DNA from: a virus
Taxonomy: Duplodnaviria > Heunggongvirae > Uroviricota > Caudoviricetes
Virus record (IMG/VR): IMGVR_UViG_2695420427_000009
Length of the DNA stretch: 19,124 nt
Strand: one strand, 5' to 3'
The notes below the pieces were generated by a model. It did not search any database, was not told the origin of the DNA, and saw only the letters and a list, made by a program, of their open reading frames with translations. The first letter of the stretch is position 1. Each line of letters begins with the position of its first letter. The position numbers were made by a program, and so were the translations under genes. This document shows positions 15,097 to 16,585 of this stretch, one piece after another.

Positions 15097-15315
15097 ATGG
15101 TATTAGATTCAATGACTGAAGCACCTGTATCAACTCTTGAAGAACTCGGATCAAACCTAAAAGACATCGACGCCGTTTTGGATCTGGTTAGCGTTGCTCT
15201 GGCTTCTCCAGAAGCCAGCTTGCATCTTGGCGAGATTTCACGACTTGTTAGTATGTCGCGGGAGATTGCTCAGAATTGCCAACAAGTTATTGCTGTTGAG
15301 TGTTTACATCATTGA
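15097..15315 (+). CDS. Small protein (72 aa) under a LexA box, candidate SOS-inducible antirepressor (N15 AntC-like role)
   Basis: ORF directly downstream of the LexA box; no strong RBS (alternative start at 15112); functional call is inference from context. Confidence 0.45.
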   Translation: MVLDSMTEAPVSTLEELGSNLKDIDAVLDLVSVALASPEASLHLGEISRLVSMSREIAQNCQQVIAVECLHH

Positions 15316-15321
15316 TACACA

Positions 15322-15341
15322 CCCCGCCCTTCTGGACGGGG
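15322..15341. terminator. GC-rich hairpin between convergent genes (possible bidirectional terminator)
   Basis: CCCCG...CGGGG stem with 4-nt loop; no clean U tract on either strand. Confidence 0.3.
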
Positions 15342-15358
15342 TAGCGAAAAGGGTCTAA

Positions 15359-15646
15359 TCAATAGACGGCATTAATATTAATCGTTGCACCGCATGCTTG
15401 GGCATATTTTGATAAAGTTTTCATGCTTGCCCCTAAAGGATTGCTTTCCAGGCGGCTGATAGCTGACGGGCGCAATCCCATTCGTTCAGCCAGAGCTGAC
15501 TTCGTTAAACCTGCTCTTTCCCTCATTTCGTATAACATTTCGACCATCTCCAGCTCTTTATCGGCCTCTTCATATCCTTTGATGGCTTCTGGAGTGTTGA
15601 GAAGTTTTTCTTTTACTTCGTTAAACGGGATGCCTTTCGCTTTCAT
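15359..15646 (-). CDS. HigA-like antitoxin, HTH_XRE family (95 aa)
   Basis: HTH LTKSALAERMGLRPSAISRLE; start overlaps toxin stop (TGATG); located downstream of toxin as in HigBA-type modules. Confidence 0.75.
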   Translation of the reverse strand: MKAKGIPFNEVKEKLLNTPEAIKGYEEADKELEMVEMLYEMRERAGLTKSALAERMGLRPSAISRLESNPLGASMKTLSKYAQACGATININAVY

Positions 15647-15957
15647 CAGTTCATCTCCTTCAGGCGAGTTCTGGCGATTTCGATAGCCTTCACCGGTGTT
15701 TTCTGTGTCTTTTTTACAAATGCATGCAATAGATAAATTTCGTTACCAGTCGCGTAGGCGTACAGCGTTCTTGCGATGTTTTTATCCCCTACTCGTAGTT
15801 CAAAAAGCCCTCCACCTATTACACGGCTATGGGGCATCTTCAGTTTGTTGCCTTCTTTCTCCAGTCGCTCAATTAATCTGGTCATGCGACCTCGCAAATC
15901 ATCTGGTAGTTCAAGCAGTTCATCCAGTGCTGCAGGGTGGGTTATCACGTTAAACAT
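15646..15957 (-). CDS. RelE/ParE-superfamily toxin, HigB-like / phage Gp49-like (103 aa)
   Basis: GGAGG RBS 8 nt upstream; sequence ...GGGLFELRVGDKNIARTLYAYATGNEIYLLHAFVKKTQKTP matches the Gp49-like toxin pattern; toxin-first gene order. Confidence 0.75.
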   Translation of the reverse strand: MFNVITHPAALDELLELPDDLRGRMTRLIERLEKEGNKLKMPHSRVIGGGLFELRVGDKNIARTLYAYATGNEIYLLHAFVKKTQKTPVKAIEIARTRLKEMN

Positions 15958-16015
15958 ATTATAGCCTCCATATCCATAAAATACACCAAAACAAGAAAAC
16001 AGCGCAAATTAAAAA

Positions 16016-16033
16016 TTTCACTAAAAAGTGAAA
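16016..16033. promoter_or_regulatory. Palindromic operator candidate TTTCACT-aaaa-AGTGAAA in the divergent promoter region of the TA module
   Basis: Perfect 7-bp arms with 4-bp spacer, about 60 bp upstream of the toxin start codon. Confidence 0.45.
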
Positions 16034-16122
16034 AATAACACTGGATGTGTTCGTTTGGCAGAGTTACAGTTCGTGTCATTGAGGGGCAATAACCAACTAA
16101 CTATATGAATTTGGAGGATATT

Positions 16123-16344
16123 ATGAATTATCAAGGTAACGAAAAAATGCGCGACGACGTTGCGGAGATAGCTAACGAACTGTATGAGTTGTGGCAGAAG
16201 GTTGAACGTTTCGAAAAGGAATATGGTTTCAACAGTACCAACCTAGCAGACCGACTGGCTGGTCGCTTAGTTGGGACTATGGGGCCAAAACTGGCTGAGT
16301 TGAACCGCTTTATGGCTGATGTTGATTTCCAGTTTCAAGATTGA
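16123..16344 (+). CDS. Hypothetical protein (73 aa from ATG 16123; ORF track starts at 16105)
   Basis: GGAGGA RBS lies inside the 16105 ORF, 6 nt upstream of the second ATG, so 16123 is the more likely start. Confidence 0.5.
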   Translation: MNYQGNEKMRDDVAEIANELYELWQKVERFEKEYGFNSTNLADRLAGRLVGTMGPKLAELNRFMADVDFQFQD

Positions 16345-16357
16345 TTAGAGAGGCGTT

Positions 16358-16585
16358 ATGAATATTAATGAAATTCGTGGAAATATGACTGAAGCGGCCC
16401 TGAGTGTGGAATGTGTTATGCGTGGATACCCACGCATTTCCCTGAAAGAGTTAAGCGAAGCCTGTTTTTTGAGTCAAGCTGCCGTTGAATTTATCATCGA
16501 ACAGATGATCTGTTTTGGGGTTGCAAAGCGTAGCGGGTCTGGTCGATATTCTTTGACCGATGAATATAAGCAGGCAACTTTCTAA
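16358..16585 (+). CDS. Small putative winged-helix DNA-binding protein (75 aa)
   Basis: RBS GAGAGG upstream; sequence ...ISLKELSEACFLSQAAVEFIIEQMICFGVAKRSGSGRYSLT resembles small wHTH regulators; weak assignment. Confidence 0.45.
   Translation: MNINEIRGNMTEAALSVECVMRGYPRISLKELSEACFLSQAAVEFIIEQMICFGVAKRSGSGRYSLTDEYKQATF

Follow-up and report, generated by a model that had tools for sequence, protein, structure and literature searches.

The locus at positions 15359-16033 of a viral DNA record (IMGVR_UViG_2695420427_000009; the whole analysed stretch of 19,124 nucleotides is hereafter called the window) raises two questions. To which toxin-antitoxin (TA) system do its two small genes belong, and is the palindrome that precedes them the site at which the antitoxin controls its own operon?

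Both genes lie on the minus strand, the toxin gene upstream (15957 to 15646) and the antitoxin gene directly downstream (15646 to 15359). The former (15646..15957), the first gene of the operon, is a 103-aa ORF orthologous to gene 49 of N15; the latter (15359..15646) is a 95-aa ORF with XRE-type helix-turn-helix (HTH), orthologous to N15 gene 48. One nucleotide is common to both, toxin stop TGA and antitoxin ATG being merged into TGATG (minus strand: ATGAACTGATGAAAG). Overlap of the two genes (-1, -4, -8 or -11) was found in every relative examined, and the co-directional genes of the window are coupled in translation by their 1-nt overlap. A Shine-Dalgarno sequence GGAGG (15965..15969, minus strand), kept in relatives, is located 7 nt 5' of the toxin ATG. 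On this side the toxin gene is separated by a 165-bp divergent region from a homologue of gp50 on the plus strand, the true start of which is probably at 16123 (GGAGGA-N4-ATG); the resulting protein of 73 aa is equal in length to N15 gp50.

To which families do the two proteins belong? All 90 positions of the Pfam profile Gp49 (PF05973, "Phage derived protein Gp49-like") are covered by the match to the toxin, with E-value of 2.5e-29 and score of 101.6 bits (cut-off 23.9). At E <= 0.01 this is the sole Pfam family retrieved for the toxin, with no match to HigB_toxin or ParE_toxin, and no NCBIfam model matches it. Residues 38-88 of the antitoxin match Pfam HTH_3 (PF01381, E 1.6e-12); its comparison with NCBIfam gave sub-threshold HTH matches only. 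Among PDB sequences, the antitoxin matches HipB, HigA2 (7EWC, weakly) and Streptococcus pneumoniae HigA (6af3_B). The initial annotation had described a Gp49-like RelE/ParE-superfamily toxin of 103 aa, preceding with overlapping stop and start an HTH_XRE antitoxin of 95 aa, and these assignments are borne out in full, as is the toxin-first order. Its label "HigB/HigA-like" is correct as to architecture and superfamily; it does not extend to membership in the Pfam HigB family, as the toxin is of the Gp49/Tad type.

The closest known system is the gp49-gp48 pair of phage N15. In tblastn comparison the toxin is 92.2% identical to N15 gp49 (the protein to which PF05973 owes its name) and 91.3% identical to phiKO2 Gp49, while the antitoxin shares 86% of its residues with N15 gp48. 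Gene lengths (103 and 95 aa) and the 1-nt overlap are the same as in N15, flanking gp46, gp47, gp50 and gp51 are syntenic, and the upstream palindrome is equally distant from the toxin ATG. Differences from N15 comprise about 8 substituted residues in the toxin, 13 in the antitoxin, a deletion of 1 nt from the promoter spacer and a -10 element reading TGTATT instead of TATATT. At the DNA level, the cassette is about 78% identical to phiKO2, and N15 was not picked up in the TA region by megablast.

We next asked what the genomic surroundings tell about the carrier. Escherichia phage PhiR46_1 shows 98% and YDC107_1 96% identity to the 19-kb window. Identity to N15, phiKO2 and related Klebsiella telomere phages is about 75% over the replication and immunity region (repA / cB / cro / Q). 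In a 99.9%-identical E. coli plasmid annotated by PGAP, genes for a replication protein, a CB-like repressor, Cro, Q and several small proteins precede the TA pair, which is followed by two small hypothetical genes, a DNA methyltransferase gene and lysis genes; this order is that of N15. Judged by such identities and gene order, the window represents a linear phage-plasmid of N15 type; the linear plasmid prophage of the initial annotation is thus borne out, and the host phage belongs to an N15-like lineage other than N15 itself (PhiR46_1 / YDC107_1 type). We are highly confident that the cassette is the ortholog of N15 genes 49 and 48, that is a type II, toxin-first TA module (tad-ata or Gp49-HigBA type) residing on an N15-like linear phage-plasmid.

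Structural data exist for more distant members of the Gp49 family and allow the toxin to be compared with them. A phmmer search of PDB sequences retrieved S. pneumoniae HigB (6AF3) with E-value of 5.5e-5 and Mycobacterium tuberculosis HigB1/HigB-TAC (7NBU, 7AWK) with E-value of about 0.04. HigB-TAC was characterised by cryo-EM as a Gp49-like toxin of RelE fold with a long C-terminal helix, which cuts mRNA at the A site of the ribosome, and residues K58, E66, R68, N73, R77, F93, K95, Q98 and K99 were proposed to form its pocket (PMC9098466). We mapped this pocket by reading the alignment from the PDB search against the published residues, taking into account the 6-residue numbering offset of the chain. 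Six of the positions carry the same residue in the window toxin under other numbers, namely E53 (for E66), R55 (R68), N60 (N73), F80 (F93), K82 (K95) and Q85 (Q98); so does K86 (K99), while R45 corresponds to K58. The remaining residue, R77, is aligned with T64, adjacent to R63. In this alignment eight of nine pocket residues are thus retained or conservatively replaced. By homology, the toxin would be a RelE-fold, ribosome-dependent mRNA endonuclease with the E-x-R, N and F-x-K-x-x-Q-K elements of the pocket kept. The gp49-family toxins listed in one survey are ribosome-dependent mRNA degraders with toxin/antitoxin gene order (PMC11980606).

The similarity of the window module to structurally determined Gp49-like HigBA systems (6AF3; 7NBU/7AWK; 7EWC) lies in the common Pfam family, the long C-terminal helix and the pocket residues; in sequence, they resemble the window toxin weakly, as the above E-values for 6AF3 HigB and HigB1 indicate. 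As a further difference, a SecB-like chaperone gene is absent from the window. Canonical HigBA of plasmid Rts1 (Proteus vulgaris) likewise places the toxin first, combines a RelE-superfamily toxin with an XRE-HTH antitoxin and acts in plasmid maintenance, but the window toxin matches Pfam Gp49 and not the HigB family. A single-sequence AlphaFold2 model of the toxin reached mean pLDDT of 45, which is too poor, so the fold is left unconfirmed by the model. The order of secondary structure elements in this low-confidence model (two helices, four strands and a long helix) agrees with the alpha-alpha-beta4-alpha order of the Gp49-like HigB fold.

The module as such is already known. It is an allele of the N15 gp49-gp48 system, and standard pipelines annotate it: N15 gp49, phiKO2 gp49 and the identical E. 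coli plasmid copies all bear the RefSeq label "type II toxin-antitoxin system RelE/ParE family toxin". Dziewit and colleagues are said to have found in 2007 that the N15 cassette stabilises heterologous replicons and that its toxin is bacteriostatic in E. coli, causing cell elongation, with growth arrest that is neutralised by the cognate antitoxin. The same authors reportedly considered different targets possible. In view of the elongation and of these possible other targets, the mRNase mechanism is unproven for the N15 branch. In the cassettes, toxin gene and antitoxin gene are each reportedly preceded by a promoter (two in all); within the toxin gene of the window no convincing internal promoter for the antitoxin was found.

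A later paper (PMC2701414) presents gp49-gp48 of N15, after Dziewit et al. (2007, J Bacteriol 189:1983), as a stabilising TA system and a homologue of tad-ata from the Paracoccus plasmid pAMI2. Armalyte et al. cite the N15 pair (Dziewit 2007) for GP49-domain toxins encoded in reverse-order operons (PMC5906591), and Sala et al. mention the "chaperone-less gp49-gp48 locus of the E. coli N15 prophage" (PMC3581621). Tad-Ata of Paracoccus aminophilus pAMI2, prototype of the group with a COG4679/DUF891 toxin, is also a toxin-first operon; it pairs a RelE-related Gp49/DUF891 toxin with an XRE-HTH antitoxin and serves to stabilise plasmids (PMC2701414, PMC3832669). It is a distant sequence relative, likened here by description, and is carried by an alphaproteobacterial plasmid, not by a phage.

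The addiction role initially proposed for the window cassette agrees with the published role of the 92%-identical N15 pair. By analogy, both stabilisation and toxicity reported for N15 would carry over to the window allele. The antitoxin is expected by homology to bind and neutralise the toxin and to be protease-labile, so that cells losing the low-copy prophage plasmid would be left with free toxin and would stop growing. Such post-segregational killing would stabilise the plasmid. Distribution of the cassette is consistent with a function in maintenance of the phage-plasmid: it is present in 16 of 5426 complete E. coli genomes, and all 16 copies are located on plasmids of 36-75 kb, none on a chromosome. 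The cassette would help a low-copy linear phage-plasmid to persist in E. coli lineages; otherwise it matters for annotation.

What is new here concerns the control region, namely comparative support for the palindrome as a candidate operator and the unusual position of this element. The palindrome, TTTCACT-AAAA-AGTGAAA (7+4+7), is found at 16016..16033, 59-76 nt 5' of the toxin ATG and inside the 165-bp divergent region, perfect and placed exactly as initially described. Perfection alone means little in such DNA. When the AT-rich intergenic region (33% G+C) was shuffled 5000 times with preservation of dinucleotides, a perfect 7-bp inverted repeat with spacer of at most 8 nt arose in 10.8% of shuffles. 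The palindrome by itself is therefore no better than chance, and the argument for an operator rests on comparative data.

Such data were drawn from N15, phiKO2 and a wider sample of 68 IMG/VR loci encoding toxin relatives (numbered with prefix L below). In N15 the 18-mer is the same, TTTCACTTTTTAGTGAAA, and equally far from the toxin ATG; in phiKO2 one spacer base is changed with both arms intact. In most of the roughly 60-68 IMG/VR relatives TTTCACT-N4-AGTGAAA is present at -76 to -78 from the ATG. Three diverged lineages carry a different, again perfect dyad at the aligned position, with both arms changed: TTTCTAT-TTTA-ATAGAAA in L051, TTTATCT-TTTT-AGATAAA in L055 and TTTATC-N6-GATAAA in L059/L061. 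In control registers slid by 1-2 nt, 2-3 (once 5) of 7 positions are symmetric. These replacements are accompanied by changes in the antitoxin. All loci of TTTCAC type encode the recognition helix PSAISRLE, and in L051, L055 and L059/L061 this helix is altered to QSGINSLM, QSALNRLE or PSNINRIE. Operator specificity thus appears to co-evolve with the recognition helix, although only three or four lineages covary and gp51, another HTH protein, diverges alongside in two of them. Constraint on the dyad is not absolute, since single-arm mutations break it in L004, L005, L010, L011 and L032-34, whose toxins are 100% identical.

Further support comes from characterised antitoxins. M. tuberculosis HigA2 binds ATATCAC-N6-GTGATAT in EMSA (PMC11205783), and the core TCAC-N6-GTGA is common to this site and to the window palindrome. 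The HigA2 site is situated inside higB2, whereas the window palindrome lies upstream of the toxin gene. In a Gp49-type module of Acinetobacter baumannii, HigA2 represses transcription from its own promoter, and the toxin serves as corepressor (PMC5906591). Positional conservation, compensatory changes of the arms in step with changed recognition helices and the HigA2 core together support the palindrome as the antitoxin operator. By homology, an antitoxin dimer would then bind the dyad TTTCAC-N6-GTGAAA and autoregulate the operon. The natural variants of operator and antitoxin represent a ready-made set for studies of specificity in XRE-type antitoxins.

We wondered how such a site would be placed with respect to the promoter. 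Reading the minus strand, we assign a putative -35 hexamer TTGCGC to 16002..16007 and, 16 nt 3' of it, a putative extended -10 element TGgTGTATT to 15980..15988. Both are recognisable in relatives. The aligned -35 hexamers are TTGTGT (N15), TTGCGT, TTGACA and TTGACG, the extended -10 reads TGgTATATT in N15 and phiKO2, and a GGT(A/G)TATTT block is kept in all close relatives, with TATAAT in L048/L059. The TA genes would hence be transcribed from a conserved sigma-70-like promoter with the conserved dyad just upstream of it. A consensus promoter scan did not call this conserved -35/-10 pair, which falls below its threshold. The only call of the scan, a minus-strand site at 16127-16100, was dropped as TA promoter because it is not conserved in N15.

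With this promoter assignment of our own, transcription is predicted to start near 15973 and the dyad spans roughly -43 to -60 relative to this point. It would sit 5' of the putative -35, an unusual place for a site of a simple occluding repressor. The initial proposal of an operator is thus favoured by conservation, compensatory arms, helix changes and the HigA2 core, and qualified by the predicted location upstream of the promoter instead of over it. A possible degenerate second copy, TTTCTTG-TTTT-GGTGTAT (15981..15998, minus strand), overlaps the promoter spacer and the -10. We assign it with low confidence: it matches the palindrome at 12 of 18 positions and consists of T-rich DNA, so it is weak in the window. 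Its counterparts in L047, L055 and L059/61 bear the lineage-specific half-site. The antitoxin might therefore contact, apart from the upstream dyad, a weaker copy over the -10.

The position of the dyad also leaves room for another reading, in which the TA pair is as described and the palindrome is the site of a different regulator, for example the winged-helix protein Gp51, or controls gp50-gp51 instead. The palindrome, 5' of the predicted TA -35, is in DNA shared with divergent gp50; gp50-gp51 accompany the TA pair in relatives whose toxins are as little as 68% identical; phiKO2 gp51 is named "winged helix-turn-helix domain-containing" by RefSeq; and in L051 and L055, with their changed palindromes, gp51 diverges too. 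On the contrary, palindromes are present at the equivalent spot in L059/L061, and a related imperfect repeat motif in L047, in loci where homologues of gp50 and gp51 were not detected. The half-site core equal to the mapped HigA2 site (PMC11205783) and the autoregulation known for an HTH antitoxin of a Gp49-type module (PMC5906591) point to the antitoxin as well. We regard control by another regulator as unlikely.

Because the dyad is upstream of the -35 in the divergent region and gp50/gp51 are linked to the pair across diverged relatives, one may also imagine a four-gene module, in which a shared operator would let the antitoxin or Gp51 control the TA operon and gp50-gp51 in concert. Its purpose could be to tie release of the toxin to the lysis-lysogeny state or to superinfection, and such a purpose would mean a role in defence or exclusion beyond simple addiction. 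We consider this arrangement quite unlikely.

Equally improbable in our estimate is that the cassette serves chiefly in anti-phage defence of the lysogen, by abortive infection or superinfection exclusion, and not in addiction. RelE/ParE-superfamily toxins are discussed as defence toxins in PMC11980606, and residues 43-95 of the window toxin match the PADLOC model NsnC in its C-terminal part (E 2.6e-7). In PADLOC-DB 2.0 this partial match stands beside generic HTH matches of the antitoxin, with no match to the whole toxin and no full-length defence system. The alternative of abortive infection raised initially thus found no support. Moreover, the activity published for the N15 ortholog, as given in PMC2701414 and PMC5906591, is replicon stabilisation, and the restriction of E. 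coli copies to plasmid replicons is what would be expected for addiction.

Addiction, with the palindrome as candidate operator of the antitoxin, is accordingly the reading we keep. A last, very improbable alternative takes the palindrome for the hairpin of a rho-independent terminator that stops or attenuates transcription into the TA operon. The N15 RefSeq record has at exactly this place a stem_loop called "putative rho-independent transcription terminator" (L001 1424-1444), TTTTTAATTT follows the hairpin on the TA strand in the window, and compensatory changes of the arms would fit a hairpin equally well. We rejected it because the 7-bp stem has only 2 G-C pairs (free energy about -5.5 to -6.2 kcal/mol), the T-run is unconserved (TTTGCC in N15, AATTCTC in phiKO2), a terminator scan gave 0 terminator-like sites, and no gene upstream on the TA strand needs termination, the sole upstream promoter-like site (16127-16100) being the one not conserved in N15. 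The palindrome, with half-site TTTCAC-N6-GTGAAA, is more likely a candidate operator than a terminator.

A GC-rich hairpin is found at the opposite side of the operon. It consists of 9-nt arms with 89% complementarity, ACCCCGCCC-ttct-GGACGGGGT (15321..15342). The terminator scan missed it because it has no T-run. Situated between the antitoxin gene and a convergent gp47-like ORF, this hairpin probably marks the 3' end of the operon.

The operator-like motif recurs once more, in degenerate form (TTTCTTG-TTTT-GGTGTAT), at 15981-15998 on the minus strand, where it overlaps the predicted -10 of the toxin-antitoxin (TA) pair. In diverged toxin relatives from IMG/VR (L047, L055, L059/61), the half-site peculiar to the respective lineage is present at the equivalent of this second position. 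This suggests that the TA pair is preceded by two putative operators.

In the N15 record, the palindrome upstream of the TA pair (L001 1424-1444, i.e. NC_001901 40551-40571) is labelled "putative rho-independent transcription terminator". Comparative data suggest that this annotation is wrong. Palindrome variants altered in a single arm, accompanied by unchanged antitoxins, were found in the upstream region of L058, where the palindrome is a hybrid (TTTATCT…AGTGAAA), and in L004, L005, L010, L011 and L032-L034. These loci could be used as natural operator mutants; alternatively, their single-arm variants may be a sign of relaxed constraint.

The divergent intergenic region further contains two blocks, CTGGATGTG and CAGAGTTACAGTTCGTGTC(A/G)TTGAG (16040-16095, plus strand), which are almost unchanged in N15, phiKO2 and most relatives and are better conserved than coding DNA nearby. 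Neither block could be matched to a promoter or a binding site. Beyond them, small proteins homologous to gp50 (16123-16344) and gp51 (16358-16585) are encoded on the plus strand. The ORF list places the gp50 start at 16105; the ATG at 16123, equipped with a GGAGGA Shine-Dalgarno sequence, is the likelier start. Neither homolog is matched in Pfam, NCBIfam or PADLOC, and phiKO2 gp51 is a winged-HTH protein according to RefSeq. Divergent linkage of gp50/gp51 with the TA pair is kept down to 68% toxin identity (L048, L050, L051, L052, L055), and TA loci without adjoining gp50/gp51 also occur (L047, L056, L059/61).

On the opposite side of the pair, a GC-rich hairpin with 9-nt arms and 4-nt loop (15321-15342) separates the antitoxin gene from a convergent gp47-like ORF (15097-15315, plus strand). 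A T-run is absent from both strands of the hairpin, at which transcripts from the two directions may end.

Toxin residues 43-95 (15673-15831, minus strand) match the PADLOC model NsnC with E-value of 2.6e-7. Since this core aligns to C-terminal positions 229-282 of the 293-position model, the similarity suggests that NsnC defence protein carries a fused Gp49/RelE-like domain.

Finally, the TA locus is found twice, in opposite orientation, in several IMG/VR contigs of approximately 44-92 kb (L006/L012, L024/L025, L035/L045, L036/L040, L039/L044). These are probably head-to-head dimers, i.e. hairpin-ended linear genomes assembled through the telomere, rather than products of true duplication.
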